From the UHGV virus genome UHGV-0088363: a stretch of 12,800 bases of DNA; one strand, given 5' to 3'. The notes beneath the pieces were generated by a model. The model was not told the origin of the DNA, searched no databases, and saw only the letters and a program-made list of their open reading frames with translations. Both the position numbers and the translations under genes were made by a program. The DNA is from a virus. The first letter of the stretch is position 1; every line of letters starts with the position of its first letter. Below are positions 657 to 12,718 of this stretch, piece by piece.

Positions 657-732
657 TGGTGCTGGTTAACGGACTTGAACCGCTACCCATTCGCTTACAA
701 GGCGACTGCTCTACCATTGGAGCTAAACCAGC
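657..732 (-). tRNA. tRNA gene, anticodon read as UGU (Thr-like), encoded CCA end
   Basis: Minus-strand sequence folds by hand as a 76-nt cloverleaf: acceptor GCTGGTT/AACCAGC (7 bp), D-stem GCTC/GAGC with GG in the loop, anticodon loop CTTGTAA, T-stem with T-loop TTCAAGT, discriminator A, CCA. One G-A pair at the top of the anticodon stem. Confidence 0.6.
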
Positions 733-737
733 ATGTT

Positions 738-812
738 TGGCGGGACAGCGTGGACTCGAACCACGATAAGAAGGTTAACAGCCTTCCGTAATGACCTTTA
801 TACGACTGACCC
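738..812 (-). tRNA. tRNA-like gene, anticodon read as GUU (Asn-like), possibly degenerate
   Basis: 75-nt cloverleaf 5 nt upstream of the previous tRNA: perfect anticodon stem GAAGG/CCTTC with loop CTGTTAA, perfect T-stem CGTGG/CCACG with T-loop TTCGAGT, then GCCA. Acceptor and D stems each have one mismatch. Confidence 0.45.
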
Positions 813-866: not shown

Positions 867-1379
867 TTAAACGGTATGATATTTCATTCTGGCTGCCTCA
901 AAAGCCGCAGCGGCAAGTTCGGCAGTGTCATGGTATCCAAGGTTAATACACTTTCCAGACGCATTAATTCTTGCTCTCCATTTCCCGTACTTAGCATCCC
1001 AAGACACGCCACGGTATCCAGATTTATTATTCTTCTGAATTTTCCTGTTTTGCATATTTTCGGAATGAGTGACAAGACGAAGATTTGATATCCGGTTATC
1101 TGTTCTTACCCTGTTGATGTGATCAATAAAACCATCTGGCATGGTGCCATAAACAATCAACCATGCCAGTCTGTGAGCAGGGTATGCTTTACCATTAATC
1201 ATAATCATTAAATACCCATCAGAATTTATTGATGAGCATTTCTTGAAAGCAAAACGAGAGTTCCATGTCAAAGTGGTCCTCTCTCTCCCCTGCCTCCACC
1301 TCCAGTGAAAGTCGCCTGATGATGGATTGTAATCAACAACAGAAAGCACCATTTCTGGCGTTAATTTTATTTCTTTCAT
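867..1379 (-). CDS. HNH homing endonuclease with C-terminal AP2-type DNA-binding domain (copy 1)
   Basis: 170-aa ORF with HNH motif DHINRVRTDNRISNLRLVTHSENMQN followed by SGYRGVSWDAKYGKWRARI...LGYHDTAELAAAAFEAA (AP2-like). RBS AAGGTAAAG upstream of the ATG. AT-rich relative to flanks. Confidence 0.8.
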   Translation of the reverse strand: MKEIKLTPEMVLSVVDYNPSSGDFHWRWRQGRERTTLTWNSRFAFKKCSSINSDGYLMIMINGKAYPAHRLAWLIVYGTMPDGFIDHINRVRTDNRISNLRLVTHSENMQNRKIQKNNKSGYRGVSWDAKYGKWRARINASGKCINLGYHDTAELAAAAFEAARMKYHTV

Positions 1380-2092: not shown

Positions 2093-2135
2093 GCGCCTTC
2101 TCCCTTGTTATCTGGAATGATTTTTACTGAGAACG

Positions 2136-2741
2136 TCATGCAGCCTCACTTCTGCTGTTTCGCAGTTTTTTAAGTTTCTGTTGATACTCCGCCTTGATGG
2201 TCCTGCACTCTTCGACAGTCCAGCGATGGCGGTTATGGTTTGATTCGATTTCGTCTACTGCTTCCTGCCCGATGCGGTTAATCAGTTCGACGCGATACGG
2301 AACGAGATTTCCGCTTTTGTGCTGGTTGCACACCACGCATTGCTTGTGAATATTGCGTTCATCAAATCGGAGTTGAGGCGCCGCAGCAGTTGTCCGGTAA
2401 TGCCCGGCATCCCACTGAGCAGACGTGAGCGTTCCGCACGAGATACATGGTAAGTCGCGGTCTCTTTCTCTGATGAAGGCGTTTACGGCTTGTTGGGCTT
2501 GTTTAATCCAGTAACTGCGGGGCTTTAAGGCGAGTTTTCGAATCTTAAGTTTATCTTTCTGTTTCTGCTCCTCTCGTCGTCGTTTCTTCTCTGCTGCTTT
2601 TTCCGCTTTTTTGCGCTGTTTGCTTCGTAGTTTGAGTGCTAATTGAGTTCCGTGTTCCGGGCAGCACCACCACTGATTTGAGAATGCCGGGTGAAACCAT
2701 TCCTTGCATATTTTGCATTTCCTTCGCGCTGATTTAGCCAT
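2136..2741 (-). CDS. ninG: NinG / Rap recombination-promoting structure-specific endonuclease
   Basis: 201-aa ORF, near-collinear with lambda NinG as recalled ([52 protein letters not shown]...). Confidence 0.9.
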
Positions 2742-2794: not shown

Positions 2795-3301
2795 TTATGG
2801 TCTACCATGGTTTTCATGAAAACCCAGTTCTTTTTCTGCCCTCTTCCTTTCTGCAATAGCGTCAATGATGCTAGCAAATATTCCAAGATATTTGGTGCGC
2901 CCATCTACGCATATATTCGCAATCCACTTACATCTCTCTTTATTGAAATATACTCCAGTCACTCCTGACGAATTGGTTATTTTTCTCTTTTGGTTCTGTG
3001 CATTCTGTTGGTGTGTAACCAATCGAAGATTAGATAGCCTATTATCTGACCTTACTCCATTTATATGATCAATTTTATACCCTAATGGAATCTCACCATT
3101 ATTTATCATCCATATAACGTGGTGAGCATAAGTAATTACACCATCGATAGTTAACATCCTATAACCATCACTCCTAATGTAACCAGCAACACTGCCAACC
3201 TTAACATTATTAGAAGGAGACACTTTCCATCTAAGTACACCTAAAACATCATCATATGATAATTTATTTCTTAATTCGTCTATGTTGCTTATATTTCTCA
3301 T
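2795..3301 (-). CDS. HNH homing endonuclease with AP2-type domain (copy 2)
   Basis: 168-aa ORF with IDHINGVRSDNRLSNLRLVTHQQNAQN followed by SSGVTGVYFNKERCKWIANI (AP2-like). AT-rich. Its start overlaps the 3' end of ninF. Confidence 0.8.
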   Translation of the reverse strand: MRNISNIDELRNKLSYDDVLGVLRWKVSPSNNVKVGSVAGYIRSDGYRMLTIDGVITYAHHVIWMINNGEIPLGYKIDHINGVRSDNRLSNLRLVTHQQNAQNQKRKITNSSGVTGVYFNKERCKWIANICVDGRTKYLGIFASIIDAIAERKRAEKELGFHENHGRP

Positions 3302-3449
3302 TATGTTCCACCATATTTAAGCATTCATATATACAACGCTCACACACGTGAACTTCCAGCACATGCAGCTTCTGACCGCAATTAGCGCACGTTAAAGCCC
3401 GCTCGACGCTTTCTTTCTGGTATTGAAGGGATTGGGATGGGCTAAGCAT
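3264..3449 (-). CDS. ninF: NinF-like protein with altered C-terminus
   Basis: N-terminal 37 residues [37 protein letters not shown] match lambda NinF as recalled; the C-terminal approx 24 residues overlap the HNH copy 2 start and differ. Confidence 0.7.
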   Translation of the reverse strand: MLSPSQSLQYQKESVERALTCANCGQKLHVLEVHVCERCIYECLNMVEHNEKYKQHRRIKK

Positions 3450-3814
3450 TATTGGATTCTCTGCATCATGAGAAAGACAATCATGGCGGCGCGGAGGGGA
3501 TTTTCATGTATAGCTCGCTTAGATTTACAGTAGGCCACACCGCGTGCACCCCACTCGTCTTCATCGAGATTGATAATGCTAATCCTGTATTTTTCAATAA
3601 TCGGCCATGCGTCTGCTGGGTTTGCGCATGGGTTAAAGGATCCGCGCTCAACTTCTACTTCAACTGCGTCTCCGTTTACAATGTCTCCCTCAAATGAGAT
3701 AAACACCATCGCGCCATTCTCACCTTCTTTGTAATCCGGTGATCCGTTATGAATGGCTTCGAATACCGCCACGTTAATTTCAAAATCACTTAACTGTGAA
3801 TAATCCATTGTCAT
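3449..3814 (-). CDS. Conserved nin-region protein of unknown function
   Basis: ORF starting at the ATG that overlaps the ninE stop (ATGA); its stop overlaps the ninF start (TAATG). Acidic protein beginning [21 protein letters not shown]. The six-frame track extends it to a GTG at 3850. Confidence 0.55.
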
Positions 3815-3987
3815 TTCCTCGCACGATGTCTTAGCCACCGGATATCCCACAGGTGAGCCGTGTAGTTGAAGGTTTTTACGTCAGATTCTTTTGGGATTGG
3901 CTTGCGTTTATTTCTGGAGCGTTTCGTTGGAAGGTATTTGCAGTTTTCGCAGATTATGTCGGTGATACTTCGTCGCTGTCGTCTCAT
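3811..3987 (-). CDS. ninE: NinE
   Basis: 58-aa product [52 protein letters not shown] matches lambda NinE as recalled; ATG overlaps the methyltransferase stop (ATGA). Confidence 0.8.
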
Positions 3988-4514
3988 GCCGCCCTCCTGA
4001 CGCCCTGCCCGATCGCCATCAATGCCGCTTTGGATACGGTAGTAAACATCCGTCGAGGACTGATGAACGGTCGCCAAATTAGCAGCATGGAGCCTTTGCT
4101 GTTTCCCTTCTTCTCCAGCCCTGTCGATGGTTCGATAAAATTAATCCGTCCATCAGTGATAATGCGAACTTCGTCGACACTCTCCAGAGCTTTGCTGAAC
4201 CATCCGACTGACATATCCTCTGGCACAAGCATAACTACCGTCTGTCGCTGTTGTATGCACTGCTCAGCGGCTTTTTCCACCCACGGCCTGATATTGCTGT
4301 ACGGTGGGTTATTCCAGATTGCACCGTGGCTTACCCACTCAGAATTGAGCGCGTCGTCGGCCTCAGTTAGCCAGTGAGCACACAGAGCATTTTTGTCGCT
4401 CGCTGCCGAATCCAGCCAGAATCCAAACTCAATATCCAGTGCATCAAAAAGCCAAAGCGGCGTTTGCCAGCAGTCTCTAACTTCTTTTGGTGTTTCTGAT
4501 TTATGCTTAATCAT
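3984..4514 (-). CDS. Phage Dam-type DNA N6-adenine methyltransferase
   Basis: 176-aa ORF with the N6-adenine MTase catalytic motif NPPY ([20 protein letters not shown]) and an N-terminal [26 protein letters not shown] region typical of small phage Dam-family enzymes. Confidence 0.8.
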
Positions 4515-5038
4515 TCAACCCTCGCATATTGCCCGTGATATTTGTTGATAGCCTCACTGGCAACCAAACCAGCAAGATCAAGATCTTCATAGAACCCAAA
4601 ATGCAACCGGCCAAAATCTGTGCGCACTTGAACGGCCCATTTATTTTTTTGCTTGTTCCATAAAACATTTTTTATTCCAGAACGGCTATTGCACTTAGTT
4701 TTCTGATTTCGGCTGTTTGCTATCCGGCTTGCCTCCCTAAGATTTTTTGGGGAATTGTCCAGCCTGTTTCCGTTAATATGGTCAATATTTTTCAATGGCA
4801 TTCTTTTGTTGTGCAGCGCAAAAACAACTACGTGAACAAACATCTGAATGCCTGCAAAACACACCTGTCTATACCCAGATCCATTTATCGATGTTTTAAT
4901 TTCATCTCCGGCCCGGTGGCTGTGGTTGGGGTGTTTTAGCGAGTCCTTTTTGTATCTGACTGTATCTCCGTCTAAATACAGATAATCCTCAATAAGCCGA
5001 TACCTATCTGACGCTGGCGTATTTGATTTGATAGTCAT
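4511..5038 (-). CDS. HNH homing endonuclease with AP2-type domain (copy 3)
   Basis: 175-aa ORF from the ATG overlapping the ninB stop (ATGA); HNH motif IDHINGNRLDNSPKNLREASRIANSRN followed by SGIKNVLWNKQKNKWAVQV...FGFYEDLDLAGLVASEAINKYHG; its stop overlaps the methyltransferase start. Confidence 0.75.
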   Translation of the reverse strand: MTIKSNTPASDRYRLIEDYLYLDGDTVRYKKDSLKHPNHSHRAGDEIKTSINGSGYRQVCFAGIQMFVHVVVFALHNKRMPLKNIDHINGNRLDNSPKNLREASRIANSRNQKTKCNSRSGIKNVLWNKQKNKWAVQVRTDFGRLHFGFYEDLDLAGLVASEAINKYHGQYARVE

Positions 5039-5475
5039 GCAGCCCGATCTCCCCATCTCGCTTTCCACTCCAGAGCCAGTCTCGCTTCGTCTGACCACTT
5101 AACGCCACGCTCTGTACCGAATGCCTGTATAAGCTCTAATAGCTCCGCAAATTCGCCTACACGCATCCTGCTGGTTGACTGGCCTATTACCACAAAGCCA
5201 TTCCCGGCAAGGTTAGGAACAACGTCCTGCTGCTTTAATGCTGCTGTAAAAACGCACTTCCAGCTTTCTGCATCCAGCCAGCGACCATGCCATTCAACCT
5301 GACGCGAAACGTCACCAAGGCAAGCCCAAAGCTTCCGATTTTGGTCTAAGCTGCGGTTGCGCTCCTGAATGGTTACTACGATTGGTTTTGTTGGGTCTGG
5401 AAGGATTTGCTGGATGGCTTGAATGGCGTTCTGCTGATGGATGGGGCTTCTTAGTTCAAACGTTAGTTTCCTCAT
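5035..5475 (-). CDS. ninB: NinB (Orf-family recombination mediator)
   Basis: 146-aa ORF, nearly collinear with lambda NinB as recalled (PDPTKPIVVTIQERNRSLDQNRKLWACLGDVSRQVEWHGRWLDAESWKCVFTAALK...). Confidence 0.9.
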   Translation of the reverse strand: MRKLTFELRSPIHQQNAIQAIQQILPDPTKPIVVTIQERNRSLDQNRKLWACLGDVSRQVEWHGRWLDAESWKCVFTAALKQQDVVPNLAGNGFVVIGQSTSRMRVGEFAELLELIQAFGTERGVKWSDEARLALEWKARWGDRAA

Positions 5476-5710
5476 TGCTCACCTTCTGCACACATGGATT
5501 AATTAACGCCAAAATAGCTTCTGGTTTCTCAATAACATCGAACCGCTCACCACTTGCCATTCTTACAATCGTAATCCCGGCCTCAAATAGGGTTTCGATG
5601 TTGTCAGAGTTAACGTACAAGGGCTCATATGCACTTCTGGTGCTTTCTATCACGCCTGTGCTTGGTGGCTGATAGATGCTGCATTGCATGGTTAATTTTA
5701 TAAATGGCAT
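5456..5710 (-). CDS. Hypothetical phage protein (84 aa)
   Basis: ORF in the operon frame chain, start 2 nt after the upstream stop; no family recognised from sequence. Confidence 0.45.
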   Translation of the reverse strand: MPFIKLTMQCSIYQPPSTGVIESTRSAYEPLYVNSDNIETLFEAGITIVRMASGERFDVIEKPEAILALINPCVQKVSNEETNV

Positions 5711-6334: not shown

Positions 6335-7771
6335 TCAGAATCCTCCTTTCTTCTTGGACTGCGGTTCCTCGCGTTCACGGCGGCGCATTTCAGCAGACTG
6401 TTGGTCTGTGTCATAAATAGCGCCATTTGCCTGAATGCAATACACCGTGCCGGTATTGCCATGACGATTGAGACGAAGGATTAGTTCGGTTTCACCAGGT
6501 GGAACACTGTCATCAAAAGCACCTTCACGATGGATCCCCACCCAATAATCGCAATCCTGTTCAATCTGCCCTGTATCGCGCGAGTCACTTGGTAATGGGC
6601 GTTTATTGGTTCGGCTTTCCAATGCGCGGTTAAGCTGTGTCAGAAGCACAACAACGCAATCAAGCTCTTTGGCAAGGTTCTTCAATCCTTTGGTGATCAT
6701 GCCGTAAGCAAGGTCGTTGCGATCGGCCTTCTCAGCAGTCATTAGTGTCAGGTAATCGACCAGAATCATGCCAACACATCCTTTTTCTCGCTTGATTCGA
6801 CGGCTTTCGCTGACGATTTGAGCCAGAGATAATCCCGGCGTGTCGTCGATGTAAAGCAGGTCGATTTCACTCAAGCGATTGGCTGTTTCGATCGCCCTGT
6901 TGAAGTCACCATCGTAATCACCCTGATAGCCGTCATCAGCGTCATTTGTCGCCGGAAGGTAAAAAATATTCGGGTTAACACCAGACTTCTGCCCTACCAG
7001 TTTTTCCAGTATCTGATCACCTGGCATTTCAAGGCTGAACATCAGAGCGGGCTTTTTCTCATGCACTGCGCAGTTGATTGCCATCTGGCTGTATAGCGTC
7101 GTTTTCCCCATCTTAGGGCGAGCGCCAATGACAAACAGAGAGCCTTTCACCAGACCTTTCGGTGACAGCATCCTGTCCAGCGATGGGATCCCTGTGCTCA
7201 TTCCTCGTTGTTCGCCTGACGGGTCAAATCGCTTCTCAAGGTCGCTAACCCAGTCTTCCATGACCTCACCAAATGAGCGAAGGCCGCGACGCGATCCGGT
7301 TTTTGCATGGTCTGTCAGTTGCGTGAAAATCGCCTGAATAGCTTCGTACTTCTGCGTTGCAGTCATTCCGTTGCGGGAATAGAGCAATTCCGTCGCTTCA
7401 GTTATGCGGTTGATGGCGTAGCGTTCCATTGCGGTTTCACGAACCTGCATTGCATAGGCAACGATGTTTGCGGCGCTTGGCGTGTTCTTTGCGATCTCAG
7501 CGATATAAGCAAAACCGCCAACAGACGACGTTAACGATTTACGCTCCAGTTCATCGAAAAGCGTCAGGCCATCTACTGGATTTTGCTCCCGGTGCATTCT
7601 GGTTATTTCTTCGAAAAGGATTTTGTGTGGTCGGCTGTAAAATGAATCAGGCTTCAGCATCGCCAGAACTTTCTGGACGCGCTCACTGCTGTCATCATCC
7701 AGAAGCAATCCACCAATCACCGCCTGCTCTGCCTCGATGCTATGGGGCGGCGCATAAAAATTATCGGTCAT
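6335..7771 (-). CDS. Replicative DNA helicase, DnaB family
   Basis: N-terminus [26 protein letters not shown] (DnaB N-domain signature), Walker A GARPKMGKTT, and a downstream ILVDYLTLM-type motif. Start set at the ATG with RBS GAGGGTG rather than the upstream GTG of the track. Confidence 0.85.
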   Translation of the reverse strand: MTDNFYAPPHSIEAEQAVIGGLLLDDDSSERVQKVLAMLKPDSFYSRPHKILFEEITRMHREQNPVDGLTLFDELERKSLTSSVGGFAYIAEIAKNTPSAANIVAYAMQVRETAMERYAINRITEATELLYSRNGMTATQKYEAIQAIFTQLTDHAKTGSRRGLRSFGEVMEDWVSDLEKRFDPSGEQRGMSTGIPSLDRMLSPKGLVKGSLFVIGARPKMGKTTLYSQMAINCAVHEKKPALMFSLEMPGDQILEKLVGQKSGVNPNIFYLPATNDADDGYQGDYDGDFNRAIETANRLSEIDLLYIDDTPGLSLAQIVSESRRIKREKGCVGMILVDYLTLMTAEKADRNDLAYGMITKGLKNLAKELDCVVVLLTQLNRALESRTNKRPLPSDSRDTGQIEQDCDYWVGIHREGAFDDSVPPGETELILRLNRHGNTGTVYCIQANGAIYDTDQQSAEMRRREREEPQSKKKGGF

Positions 7772-8660
7772 CGTGTTCACCCTCACGAACTTTCAGGTAG
7801 GTATTATCGTTAAGCAGGAAATCAAATCCCTTTTTGTGCCAGACGGTTCCGCGTTGATGGTTTGGGCGTTCTTCGAACATCCATCGGCAATTTTCGCCTA
7901 CGTAGCTCAAATAATTTCTCCAGTCCTGCATCGTGAACCCATGCCCGTCAAGCTGGCGGGTTATCACTCCGGCTTTGCGCCAGAACGTTCGGATCTGGTT
8001 TTTACGCTTGTCATTCAGTGCGCGGATTCTTGGCGCTTCAGGAAGGATTTCGTGGTAAGCATCGACAACATCCTGACAGCTGACGGAAGGTTTTTTCTTG
8101 TCAGACTTTTTGTCTGCTGTGGCACTCTCTAATACGTCAGTATTAGAGATAATATTATTATATTCTTTATCTGTGGTAATTTGCTGGTAATCTGCTGGCA
8201 TAGTATTGCTTACAGGCATTGGTATTGCTGGCTTTGAGGTGGTAATTTGCTGGTAATCTGCTGGTACAGAATTTGACTGATAATCGTCATATTTCTCTAC
8301 CGAGAAAACTGAAAATTTACCGTGTGAAACCCAGTCAATCATGCCGAGTTTTTTGAACTTTCTAAGCAGGTACTGAACGCGATCTGGTTTGAGTCCTGTT
8401 TCAAACGCCAGAGAGTTTCTACCGCCAAGTAGCTTCCCTCTGCCTACCAGAATTTCTCCTGCGTCAGTCATTACATACTCAGGCGTATGCTTTGCTTTGA
8501 GGATTAAGTGAACCCACAGATGCGCTGCTTCTGCGTCCTTGTAAAACGGCACATCCATAATTTTACGGTGCAGCAAGGCATACCCCTTACCGCTGCTTTG
8601 ATGCGGTTGTTGTAGCCTTCTGGCCTCTCTGGCTTCGGCTAGATTAGATATGTTACTCAT
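7761..8660 (-). CDS. Replication initiation protein (O-like, iteron-containing), non-lambda allele
   Basis: 299-aa ORF directly upstream of and overlapping the helicase gene; contains the origin-like iterons, which encode a repeated PADYQQITT segment; RBS AAGGAGAAAGG. Not the lambda O sequence. Confidence 0.7.
8129..8264. repeat. Putative replication origin: iterons plus adjacent AT-rich tract inside the O-like gene
   Basis: Exact 26-bp direct repeat GTGGTAATTTGCTGGTAATCTGCTGG at 8173..8198 and 8239..8264, each made of two approx 12-bp GGTAAT(T/C)TGCTG units, with degenerate units between; AT-rich stretch at 8129..8170. Confidence 0.55.
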
Positions 8661-9230: not shown

Positions 9231-10245
<1,015 letters not shown>

Positions 10246-10331: not shown

Positions 10332-11237
10332 ATGTCGATTAACAGCAATAGCGAATCCCTGCATCAAATGCAGCTTTTCCCTGTAGTAGAGGTTGTTTCT
10401 GATGATATTCCTATGGGCGTTCTCAATGATGGAACTCCTTACCTAACTCTCTACGGTCTCGCAAAGTTATGCGGCATTGATGACACGCCACTGAGGGTGT
10501 TCACATCAAACTGGAACACAGAGAAAAACAAACCCAGAGGTCAAAAAGTAGCTGCGTATTTAGCTGAGAAAGGGTTTCATAACGTCGAAAAGCTATACAC
10601 TCGCGTTTTAAATAGCTCAAACGTGGAAACTCATGCTTATCCTGACTATGTTTGCATGGCTATCCTCCGTTACTACGCTCTAGATGCCACCAATTTTGAT
10701 AGGTCAGTCGCAATAGGTAATTTTGTTCGCTTGGCTGAGTACACGCTTAAGCGAATGATTTATGAAAAGTCAAATTACAACCCAAATGCTTCAATAGATA
10801 TCTCATTCGAGAACTATAGAGCAAGGATTAAGCTAAACGATCAGATACCGACAACTCATTTTGCAGTATTCAGAGAGATAGCTGACATTGCCATGAACCT
10901 GATCGGAGGAGGATTCCCAATGGATGACACCACATCTTTGGATGGAAGTGTTGGAATTCACTGGGGAAAGTATTGGACAGCTAATGGGCTATCTGAGAAA
11001 TTCGGGGAAAGGGTGCAGTACCCACATTTATTCCCCGAAAATTACAGGCAGTCAGCTGCAAATAAGCATATAACAGCTTGGATTTATCCTATTGAGGCAC
11101 TTGGCGTGTTCAGAAAATGGCTACACGATAATTACGCAATGGAAAAACTGCCAAATTACCTTGGGAACAAAAAGATTAGTAACGCCTCCGAGCTATTAGA
11201 GTCGATAAAAAAACCAGCACTCCCAAATAAGCATTGA
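10332..11237 (+). CDS. Unknown 301-aa protein in the position occupied by rexA-rexB in lambda; candidate lysogen-expressed exclusion/defense gene
   Basis: Uninterrupted ORF with RBS AAGGAAAT, co-directional with cI, followed by a terminator; AT-rich versus flanks; no similarity to RexA/RexB and no kinase or NTPase motifs visible by eye. Confidence 0.7.
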   Translation: MSINSNSESLHQMQLFPVVEVVSDDIPMGVLNDGTPYLTLYGLAKLCGIDDTPLRVFTSNWNTEKNKPRGQKVAAYLAEKGFHNVEKLYTRVLNSSNVETHAYPDYVCMAILRYYALDATNFDRSVAIGNFVRLAEYTLKRMIYEKSNYNPNASIDISFENYRARIKLNDQIPTTHFAVFREIADIAMNLIGGGFPMDDTTSLDGSVGIHWGKYWTANGLSEKFGERVQYPHLFPENYRQSAANKHITAWIYPIEALGVFRKWLHDNYAMEKLPNYLGNKKISNASELLESIKKPALPNKH

Positions 11238-11756: not shown

Positions 11757-12083
11757 ATGGATGCACAAACACGCCGCCGCGAACGTCGCGCAGAGAAACA
11801 GGCTCAATGGAAAGCAGCAAATCCCCTGTTAGTTGGGGTAAGCGCAAAACCAGTTAACCGCCCTATTCTCTCGCTGAATCGCAAACCGAAATCACGAGTA
11901 GAAAGCGCACTGAATCCGATAGACCTTACGGTGCTGGCTGAATACCACGAACAGATTGAAAGCAACCTGCAGCGTATTGAGCGCAAGAATCAGCGCACAT
12001 GGTACAGCAAGCCACGCAGTGAAATGGGTGTGACTTGTGTTGGTCGCCAGAAAATGAAATTAGGCAGCAAACCACTTATTTGA
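11757..12083 (+). CDS. N: N antitermination protein
   Basis: 108-aa ORF MDAQTRRRERRAEKQAQWKAANPLLVGVSAKPVNRPILSLNRKPKSRVESALNPIDLTVLAEYH..., arginine-rich motif at the N-terminus; RBS ACAGGAGAATCCAG; the C-terminal approx 20 residues differ from lambda N as recalled. Confidence 0.95.
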   Translation: MDAQTRRRERRAEKQAQWKAANPLLVGVSAKPVNRPILSLNRKPKSRVESALNPIDLTVLAEYHEQIESNLQRIERKNQRTWYSKPRSEMGVTCVGRQKMKLGSKPLI

Positions 12084-12094
12084 GAGGAATTAAT

Positions 12095-12718
12095 ATGTCA
12101 TCAATCCGCTTAACTACGAGAATGAAAGAGGAAATCGCTCGTAACGCTTTAATTAAGTCTGGGTTTTTCACTGAACTTAAAGAAGTAACAAAGTTAAAGA
12201 ACCAGCTTGCACTTGACGCCAGAGTTATTGCGTTTGGCGGTAAAAAGAAAACTGAGGAAGTGGATCAGTTATCATCCAAGTTGGTAGCTATAAGTGAAGA
12301 ACTTGAAAAGATGGGATGTTCATTTTACTCATACGATGTTCGTTCTACTTCAATTTATCTGACTGTATCTGGCAGAAGGGTTGGATGGCATTCATATGGG
12401 AAAGACGGCAACGGCGAAGATATATTGCTCCCTACTCCGACCAAAGATAAATGCATGTTTAGCGCAGAACACGAAATAACAAAAAGGTTTGATGAAATCT
12501 GCGCATTGCAACAAAAACTTGAAGCCAAGAAAAAGGATATCGAATCAAATGTATGGGCTGCTTTGAACTCAGTCACAACAGTTAAGCGACTTATTGAAGT
12601 TTGGCCTGAAAGCAAAGAATTGCTACCAGAAGAAGCAGATAAAGCAAGTACAGCACTTCCTGCTTTACGGGTAGAAGATTTGAATAAGATGATTGGACTT
12701 CCTTCCGAGGCCGCATAG
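12095..12718 (+). CDS. Unknown 207-aa protein immediately downstream of N; candidate moron
   Basis: ATG 11 nt after the N stop with GAGGA inside the N 3' end; AT-rich; charged, coiled-coil-like sequence; followed by a hairpin and T-rich tract. The track's upstream extension (12035) overlaps N and is not used. Confidence 0.65.
   Translation: MSSIRLTTRMKEEIARNALIKSGFFTELKEVTKLKNQLALDARVIAFGGKKKTEEVDQLSSKLVAISEELEKMGCSFYSYDVRSTSIYLTVSGRRVGWHSYGKDGNGEDILLPTPTKDKCMFSAEHEITKRFDEICALQQKLEAKKKDIESNVWAALNSVTTVKRLIEVWPESKELLPEEADKASTALPALRVEDLNKMIGLPSEAA

Follow-up and report, generated by a model that had tools for sequence, protein, structure and literature searches.

The question raised by this locus is why an open reading frame (ORF) for an HNH endonuclease should be joined directly to one for a Dam-type adenine methyltransferase. 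Both lie in a 12,800-nucleotide (nt) stretch of the virus genome UHGV-0088363, hereafter the window, which covers the immunity, replication and nin region of a lambdoid phage or prophage and in which all the genes of interest run on the minus strand. The original prediction held that the two genes abut, and this was confirmed by their Pfam matches and by the sequence of the junction: the HNH ORF (4511-5038, 175 amino acids plus stop, Pfam HNH_3) and dam (3984-4514, 176 amino acids, PF05869 Dam methyltransferase, 221 bits) share the four bases ATGA at 4514-4511 of the minus strand, where the HNH stop codon TGA (4513-4511) overlaps the Dam start codon ATG (4514-4512). As to the origin of this arrangement, a homing endonuclease that landed beside a phage methylase had been proposed, and also a functional pair in which methylation marks self DNA. 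Our findings make it very probable that a free-standing HNH(N)-AP2 homing endonuclease gene has invaded the 5' end of an orphan dam gene within a lambdoid nin operon. The evidence established here comprises the anatomy of the insertion, presence and absence of the gene at the same site in several dam backgrounds, the near-identity of a cassette whose flanks have diverged, scars left by deletion, purifying selection and the protein fold.

The comparison with HK544, a phage that lacks the HNH gene, defined the breakpoints by BLAST alignment. Positions 3773-4475 and 5013-5469 of the window correspond to 1501-2203 and 2214-2670 of HK544, and 10 nt of the HNH-less allele (ACACGACAAG) are exchanged for a cassette of 537 nt (4476-5012, minus strand) that consists of the HNH body, the ATGA and a replacement dam 5' end. 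The dam start of HK544 reads ATGACTATCAAATCAAATACGCCAGC|ACACGACAAG|GACTGCTGG; the window has the same first 26 nt, then the 537 nt, and then GACTGCTGG (Asp-Cys-Trp, dam codons 13-15), where homology to HK544 resumes. In HK544 or VT2-Sakai, the HNH-less dam start is found in the context ...GGGCTGCATGACTATCAAATCAAATACGCCAGCACACGACAAGGACTGCTGG... The first 26 nt of the HNH ORF (5013-5038, minus strand), which represent the captured dam start or left homology arm, are identical to the HNH-less dam (codons MTIKSNTPA), and the cassette is in frame after dam codon 9. Since the HNH ORF opens with the first nine codons of dam, it would use dam's own start, coupled to ninB. At its 3' end, the cassette runs through GAGGGTTGA-ATGA, with a Shine-Dalgarno-like GAGGG, into 13 recoded dam codons. 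This replacement 5' end (4476-4514, minus strand; ATG plus 12 codons, of the MIKHKS type) is a copy of the resident dam start MTIKSNTPAHDK that has diverged from it at about 40% of positions. By comparison of alleles, then, the HNH gene lies not beside dam but inside its 5' end, where it is predicted to use dam's original start codon. The proposal of a homing endonuclease at a phage methylase is thus sustained, and its wording "beside" has to be given up in view of the HK544 breakpoints.

The overlap of the two genes is a property of the whole operon. The NinB stop and the HNH start also form an ATGA (5038-5035), as do the Dam stop and the NinE start (3987-3984), and in the HNH-less HK544 the NinB and Dam genes overlap by the identical four bases. 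Because the ATGA recurs at the neighboring junctions and between NinB and Dam where no HNH gene is present, the HNH-Dam overlap is not specific to this pair, and the coupling appears to be inherited from the operon. Co-translation of HNH and Dam, as named in the original prediction, is what the overlap suggests. The HNH/dam ATGA is kept in 18 of 18 HNH-carrying loci of the window's dam lineage and also in a second dam lineage, described below; one locus (L017) has an additional TAA one codon ahead of it. RefSeq lets dam begin one base into the HNH stop codon in five E. coli prophages (L002, L003, L004, L145 and L146), which would mean a start codon other than ATG; three bases further upstream lies an in-frame ATG, the likely start, that restores the operon-wide ATGA overlap.

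The distribution of the gene is that of an optional insertion. Of 5426 complete E. coli genomes, 34 contain the HNH body (41 places in all) and 1376 the shared dam segment, so that the HNH gene occurs in 34 of about 1376 carriers and about 97% of the dam-bearing E. coli genomes are without it. The recoded dam start was present in 42 E. coli genomes, namely all 34 HNH-carrying genomes and 8 without HNH. Among viral contigs, at least 120 empty sites were counted against 19 loci with the recoded dam start, of which 15 carry HNH. A megablast search of 50,697 phage records gave no close match to the HNH gene, only the flanks of the window being matched (empty sites), and scans of species-representative genomes recovered neither a relative of 77% identity, described next, nor a degenerate pattern of the recoded dam start. 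HNH is polymorphic, being present in some alleles and absent from others, and its site is the same across two dam lineages and no fewer than four dam backgrounds. The gene for the RefSeq protein WP_052167194.1, which is one residue apart from the window HNH, has three different upstream neighbors at the place of ninB, two of them annotated as ninB alleles and the third without annotation, and the modules downstream of these loci differ as well.

The second dam lineage came to light through a metagenomic contig that carries an HNH (P0003) 77% identical to that of the window. Its gene is flanked on one side by a DUF1367 gene and on the other by a dam gene whose product shares only about 50% identity with the window Dam, again with an ATGA as HNH/Dam stop/start overlap. 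This lineage was sampled in 28 viral contigs, 23 without HNH and 5 with it; the search for its host gave one hit only, a weak one to an Enterobacter phage. In the 23 alleles without HNH, Dam starts with MTDKSNT.. or near variants (for example, MTDKSNTPKEQKDLW and MTLKSNTAPNDKDCW). In the five HNH-carrying alleles it is the HNH ORF that starts with MTDKS or MTDIS, and Dam restarts with MIKHKSQTPIESRDCW. Judged from these alleles, the endonuclease ORF begins with the dam start of its own lineage, MTI.. in the window lineage and MTD.. in lineage 2, and the MIKHKS-type 5' end accompanies HNH even into a dam lineage of about 50% identity (MIKHKSQTPIESR). Within lineage 2, the cassette together with the first 50-90 nt of dam is 98-100% identical across loci with three dam bodies that are only 60-76% identical to one another, and the nearest neighbor of each HNH-carrying dam body is an HNH-less one of 98-99% identity.

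These alleles also bear on a reverse history, in which the HNH-dam arrangement with its MIKHKS start would be ancestral and the common MTIKSNTPAHDK start would be the scar of an HNH deletion, no insertion having taken place. Such a history could draw on the 26 nt common to HNH and the common dam allele and on the existence of HNH deletion derivatives. Nevertheless, every HNH-less allele of either dam lineage has a start of the MT(I/D/L)KSNT type, which diverges along with the dam body (MTDKSNTPPEDKDRW, MTDKSNTPKEQKDLW, MTDKSNTPAEIKDLW, MTLKSNTAPNDKDCW), whereas the MIKHKS start occurs only with HNH or its remnants, with the sole exception of one locus (L015), and keeps about 80% nucleotide identity where the dam bodies behind it share only about 50% at the protein level. 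Moreover, HNH-less alleles outnumber HNH-carrying ones by more than 30 to 1. We consider the reverse history very improbable. Because its sequence diverges in step with the dam body, the MT.KSNTP start is taken to be ancestral and the MIKHKS start to be tied to HNH, and at the level of sequence this settles the polarity in favor of insertion.

Further loci record both movement and decay of the cassette. E. coli 23CRST013 harbors two co-resident prophages (L145 and L146) that have different replication modules and different ninB alleles and are nevertheless 100% identical from Q through HNH, over about 3.9 kb, the identical tract ending about 110 nt into ninB. This tract looks like a recent gene conversion between prophages in one cell, which fits break-initiated conversion without proving it. 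Ahead of the recoded dam start, two loci (L013 and L023) retain a 27-nt piece of the HNH 3' end (CACGGACAATATGCGAGGGTTGAATGA), which codes for the ..HGQYARVE typical of the family, and L008 and E. coli E308 a 13-nt piece. Since distant HNH homologues end in KYHGQ(Y/F)AR.., the 13-nt and 27-nt pieces are regarded as HNH remnants; for the same reason, a derivation of the HNH C-terminus (..ARVE*) from the 3' end of ninB was rejected. Frameshifted or truncated HNH variants are also present in databases (P0002, P0005 and P0006). Gain, degeneration and loss have been described as the pattern of homing endonuclease genes (PMC2248197), and on sequence grounds the scars and broken variants seen here match it.

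The same observations may be read in terms of competition between phages, with HNH kept mainly as a weapon that cuts the dam/nin region of HNH-less relatives and excludes their markers, and with the copying of the gene as a by-product. The presence of three distinct HNH-AP2 genes in a 4.2-kb part of the nin/Q region, an intact HNH ORF under purifying selection, and the long one-sided identical tract between co-resident prophages would suit this view, and nucleases at the boundaries of genetic exchange and marker exclusion have been described in other phages (PMC10448857). The low prevalence (34/1376), the scars and the frameshifted copies fit selfish gain and loss better than a selected function, however, and with the present data the weapon is not really distinguishable from homing. 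As the main reason for keeping the gene, it appears unlikely to us.

The properties of the encoded protein agree with those of a homing endonuclease. The HNH ORF, called HNH copy 3 in the original prediction, matches Pfam HNH_3 (PF13392) with 42.6 bits (cut-off 24.8), and an alignment of 37 homologues places its catalytic motif, of the HNN type, at residues 86-111 (IDHINGNRLDNSPKNLREASRIANSRN; 4706-4783, minus strand), with D86, H87, I88, N89, D94, N95, N99, L100 and N108 invariant. Its DNR, NLRE and N boxes agree with the description of HNN-AP2 phage endonucleases (PMC2248197). The AlphaFold2 (AF2) model has a pLDDT of 90.7, and its secondary structure delimits a C-terminal AP2-like DNA-binding domain of three strands and a helix (residues ~121-167; 4538-4678, minus strand), which Foldseek aligned to the plant AP2 domains 7et5 and 7et4 with a root-mean-square deviation of 1.5-1.9 Å and a probability of 0.99-1.0. 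The Pfam AP2 model scored below threshold on HNH copy 3 and was detected in the window paralogue HNH1 and in homologues. The top Foldseek match of the whole model in the Protein Data Bank (PDB) was I-HmuI (1u3e; probability 1.0, E 1.6e-3). With its catalytic residues and its modelled fold, a beta-beta-alpha-metal core and a distinct AP2-type domain at the C-terminus, HNH copy 3 is assigned to the HNH(N)-AP2 endonucleases of the I-HmuI-like HNH_3 superfamily. A dN/dS of 0.10 against the 77%-identical relative indicates purifying selection. In Jersey-like, T5-like and Stx1 phages, relatives that share 35-38% identity with the window HNH carry annotations as homing endonucleases; their neighbors are holin, endolysin and other genes, methylases not being among them. 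PADLOC labels all three HNH proteins of the window "HEase homing endonuclease", weakly in the case of copy 3 (E 8e-4), and none of its restriction-enzyme (REase) models matched the window HNH. A packaging-type HNH similar to HK97 gp74 was rejected on position, the gene lying in the nin region and not adjacent to the terminase.

The methylase, for its part, is an enzyme known from other phages. It covers model positions 1-167 of 169 in PF05869, has its NPPY motif at residues 69-72 (4299-4310), and finds as its best PADLOC match "oMTase orphan methyltransferase". The Dam of the E. coli host already makes the GATC mark. The window Dam is 97% identical to M.EcoVT2Dam of VT2-Sakai, with all differences within the first 13 residues and 100% identity from residue 14, and M.EcoVT2Dam has been reported as an orphan GATC methylase (PMC6602927). 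By this identity, the window Dam is probably a phage orphan N6-adenine methyltransferase with GATC specificity (PMC6602927).

These results weigh heavily on the idea of a restriction-modification (R-M)-like pair, in which HNH would cut DNA that lacks the methylation of the adjacent Dam and the two genes would form one unit. The genes are indeed adjacent, co-oriented and overlapping by ATGA, HNH was never seen without a neighboring Dam, and a GATC lies close to the insertion site (5049-5046, at the 3' end of ninB, 10 nt upstream of the ATG). Yet the mark attributed to this Dam, an orphan GATC enzyme from residue 14 (PMC6602927), is redundant in a host that makes it already, and Dam occurs without HNH in about 97% of its carriers, so that the two are not inherited as a unit. 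Insertion into dam accounts for the adjacency. The HNH-less alleles, which are the likely targets, encode the same Dam; the other HNH paralogues of the window, one in ninF and one after Q, have no methylase beside them; and the nuclease belongs to a homing family, with PADLOC labels of homing endonuclease and orphan methyltransferase and no restriction-enzyme match. At the lineage-2 insertion site, no GATC was found within about 50 nt, and a link between cleavage and methylation through the GATC upstream of the ATG was rejected on the absence of that GATC from the lineage-2 site. The self-marking pair of the original prediction is not supported, given the orphan nature of M.EcoVT2Dam, the large majority of HNH-less carriers and the PADLOC labels. 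We give an R-M-like pair almost no chance of being correct, and equally little to the proposal that Dam methylation of replicating phage DNA gates cleavage.

We hypothesize that the homing endonuclease gene works as follows. HNH would be co-transcribed with the nin operon, and ribosomes ending ninB would reinitiate at the captured dam ATG and produce the endonuclease; ribosomes ending HNH would in turn restart at the overlapping ATG and yield an almost unchanged Dam. That stop/start overlaps couple translation has been described (PMC6728339). The trigger would be an HNH-less dam allele in the same cell, brought by a superinfecting phage or carried by a co-resident prophage. The enzyme would bind this target through its AP2-like domain and nick or cut it near dam codons 5-13, and recombinational repair from the HNH-carrying allele would copy the cassette and some flanking DNA, possibly assisted by NinB/Orf and NinG/Rap of the same operon. 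The carrier genome would be immune to its own enzyme, because the site is split and the downstream copy of the dam start is recoded. The cleavage site, the immunity through recoding and the translational reinitiation are what we infer here. We lean, by a modest margin, towards a strategy of "start-capture and restart", in which the recoding of the first 13 target codons, carried by the cassette itself, lets the gene live inside a coding gene without an intron or intein and leaves its carrier immune.

Several points weigh against an invasion by homing as set out above. In L015, the recoded dam start directly follows ninB through an ATGA junction, with no HNH remnant; therefore, the recoded end could be a natural minor dam allele and not strictly a part of the cassette. 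Cleavage by free-standing phage endonucleases can fall hundreds of bases from the gene that encodes them (PMC2988022), and the dam 5' end is thus not necessarily the target. The identical tract of the co-resident prophages and the mosaic boundaries could result from ordinary lambdoid homologous recombination without an endonuclease. As for the fold, the match to I-HmuI is globally weak (E 1.6e-3, TM 0.39), and the HNH sequence by itself obtained no meaningful match in the PDB, I-HmuI and AP2 being recovered by the fold search only. The homing activity of the window HNH, that is, cleavage, inheritance of the cassette and expression, is a prediction from sequence and structural model.

Many features of the locus have precedents. 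HNH-AP2 genes are a recognized class of phage homing endonucleases (PMC2248197, PMC10448857). The HNN/HNH-AP2 endonucleases of the Xanthomonas phages Xp10, OP1 and Xop411 and the "IPA-HNH" of ICP1 share with the window protein an N-terminal HNH_3/HNN part, a C-terminal AP2 domain and the DNR, NLRE and N boxes, and their genes also occur in several dispersed copies per genome and undergo gain, degeneration and loss (PMC2248197, PMC10448857). Those genes were described between genes or, with no more particulars, as interrupting genes, whereas the window gene captures the start of its target and supplies replacement 5' codons; in identity, the window HNH reaches at most 38% with catalogued phage members. 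I-HmuI of Bacillus phage SPO1 (PDB 1u3e) is likewise phage-encoded and mobile and combines a small HNH/HNN core with a separate DNA-binding module. Its gene, however, resides in a group I intron, and its C-terminal module is a helix-turn-helix, in contrast to the free-standing, AP2-like window protein, to which I-HmuI is only 22% identical. Free-standing homing endonuclease genes that overlap the upstream ORF are known too, as in the UAAUGA of nrdA/mobE (PMC2988022). T4 mobE resembles the window gene in having no translation-initiation region of its own and an overlap suggestive of a coupling that keeps the endonuclease low (PMC2988022), but it lies between nrdA and nrdB and belongs to another HNH subgroup, while the window element is inside the target ORF and coupled at both ends (ninB-HNH and HNH-dam).

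On the side of the methylase, M.EcoVT2Dam, of the VT2-Sakai/933W type, matches the window Dam at every residue from 14 onwards, and its gene likewise lies between ninB and ninE; the window Dam differs in that its first 13 residues are replaced (versus MTIKSNTPAHDK) and that its translation is predicted to depend on the HNH ORF and not on ninB. Type II R-M systems with HNH nucleases have adjacent, co-oriented and overlapping nuclease and methyltransferase genes as well; unlike them, the window has a common, solitary methylase whose mark is host-made, a nuclease from a homing family, and an adjacency explained by the insertion site. Free-standing HNH-AP2 elements, overlap-coupled endonuclease genes and interrupted genes are thus already known (PMC2988022, PMC2248197, PMC10448857), and RefSeq labels both genes. 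The capture of a start codon combined with a cassette-borne recoded 5' end that restarts the target, in two dam lineages, was not found described in the literature.

The remainder of the window is that of a lambdoid genome. The gene cI (9532-10245, plus strand), with cro alongside, is followed in gene order by an O-like replication gene and a DnaB-type helicase gene (6335-7786), two small ORFs, and ninB (5035-5475, minus strand; Pfam NinB, 182 bits), which encodes an Orf-family recombination mediator and is the gene upstream of HNH. Downstream of dam come ninE (3811-3987, minus strand; Pfam NinE) and ninX. The second HNH_3 ORF (2795-3301, minus strand) lies after a truncated ninF, and the third, an HNH_3/AP2 ORF (867-1379, minus strand), beyond ninG and Q, followed by two tRNA genes and the S holin gene. 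The three HNH genes, one of which the original prediction called copy 3, are paralogues with pairwise identities of only 26-30% and not copies of one element.

The second HNH_3 gene interrupts ninF at codon 38, where 4 nt of the HK544 ninF are replaced by 543 nt (window 2795-3449, minus strand). The truncated NinF 5' part keeps a CxxC...CxxC zinc ribbon (CEHC -> CERC) and ends early at 3264, and beyond the second HNH stop the last 19 NinF codons persist in a different reading frame, in which there is an ATG at 2808. The third HNH gene is located between Q (1574-2092) and the two tRNA genes, tRNA-Thr (TGT) and tRNA-Asn (GTT) (657-812, minus strand), which separate it from the holin gene; E. coli 23CRST013 (L146) has an annotated HNH of a similar kind downstream of its Q gene. 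Three HNH-AP2 genes in 4.2 kb resemble the "HEG islands" (HEG, homing endonuclease gene) of other phages. The ninG stop overlaps, again by ATGA, the first codons of a ninH remnant (about 2095-2139, minus strand) that runs into the start region of Q and represents a mosaic joint where ninH was lost. The exact 12.8-kb mosaic of the window was found in no complete E. coli genome, the best coverage being 65%.

Three other ORFs deserve mention. An 84-amino acid ORF upstream of ninB (5456-5710, minus strand) has a marginal FlbD match (25.5 bits, cut-off 24.7), and its Sf6 equivalent is annotated "flagellar protein", a name that is probably misleading. The 301-amino acid ORF just downstream of cI (10332-11237, plus strand), without any Pfam match, is a strong homologue of BstA (PADLOC PDLC02356, E 1e-105), a prophage abortive-infection defense protein. 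Finally, downstream of the N gene (11757-12083), a 227-amino acid ORF (12035-12718, plus strand) matches Nmad5 (PF18757, 243 bits), the "nucleotide modification associated domain 5".

The arrangement in the window is a tidy detail and not a new kind of system, and its recognition removes the tempting but wrong reading of a new phage nuclease/methylase system for self-marking. It offers a natural example of a selfish endonuclease gene that resides inside a translationally coupled operon at almost no cost, the element reusing the start signal of its target and passing translation on to a repaired copy of that target. The empty site (ATGAC....AAATCAAAYAC...) provides a candidate recognition sequence for an uncharacterized HNH-AP2 enzyme. 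In lambdoid and Stx-type prophages, the element also identifies a hotspot of recombination within the nin region and could help to explain the mosaic boundaries at ninB and dam. If true, start-capture and restart would be a third way in which homing endonuclease genes can invade coding sequence harmlessly.

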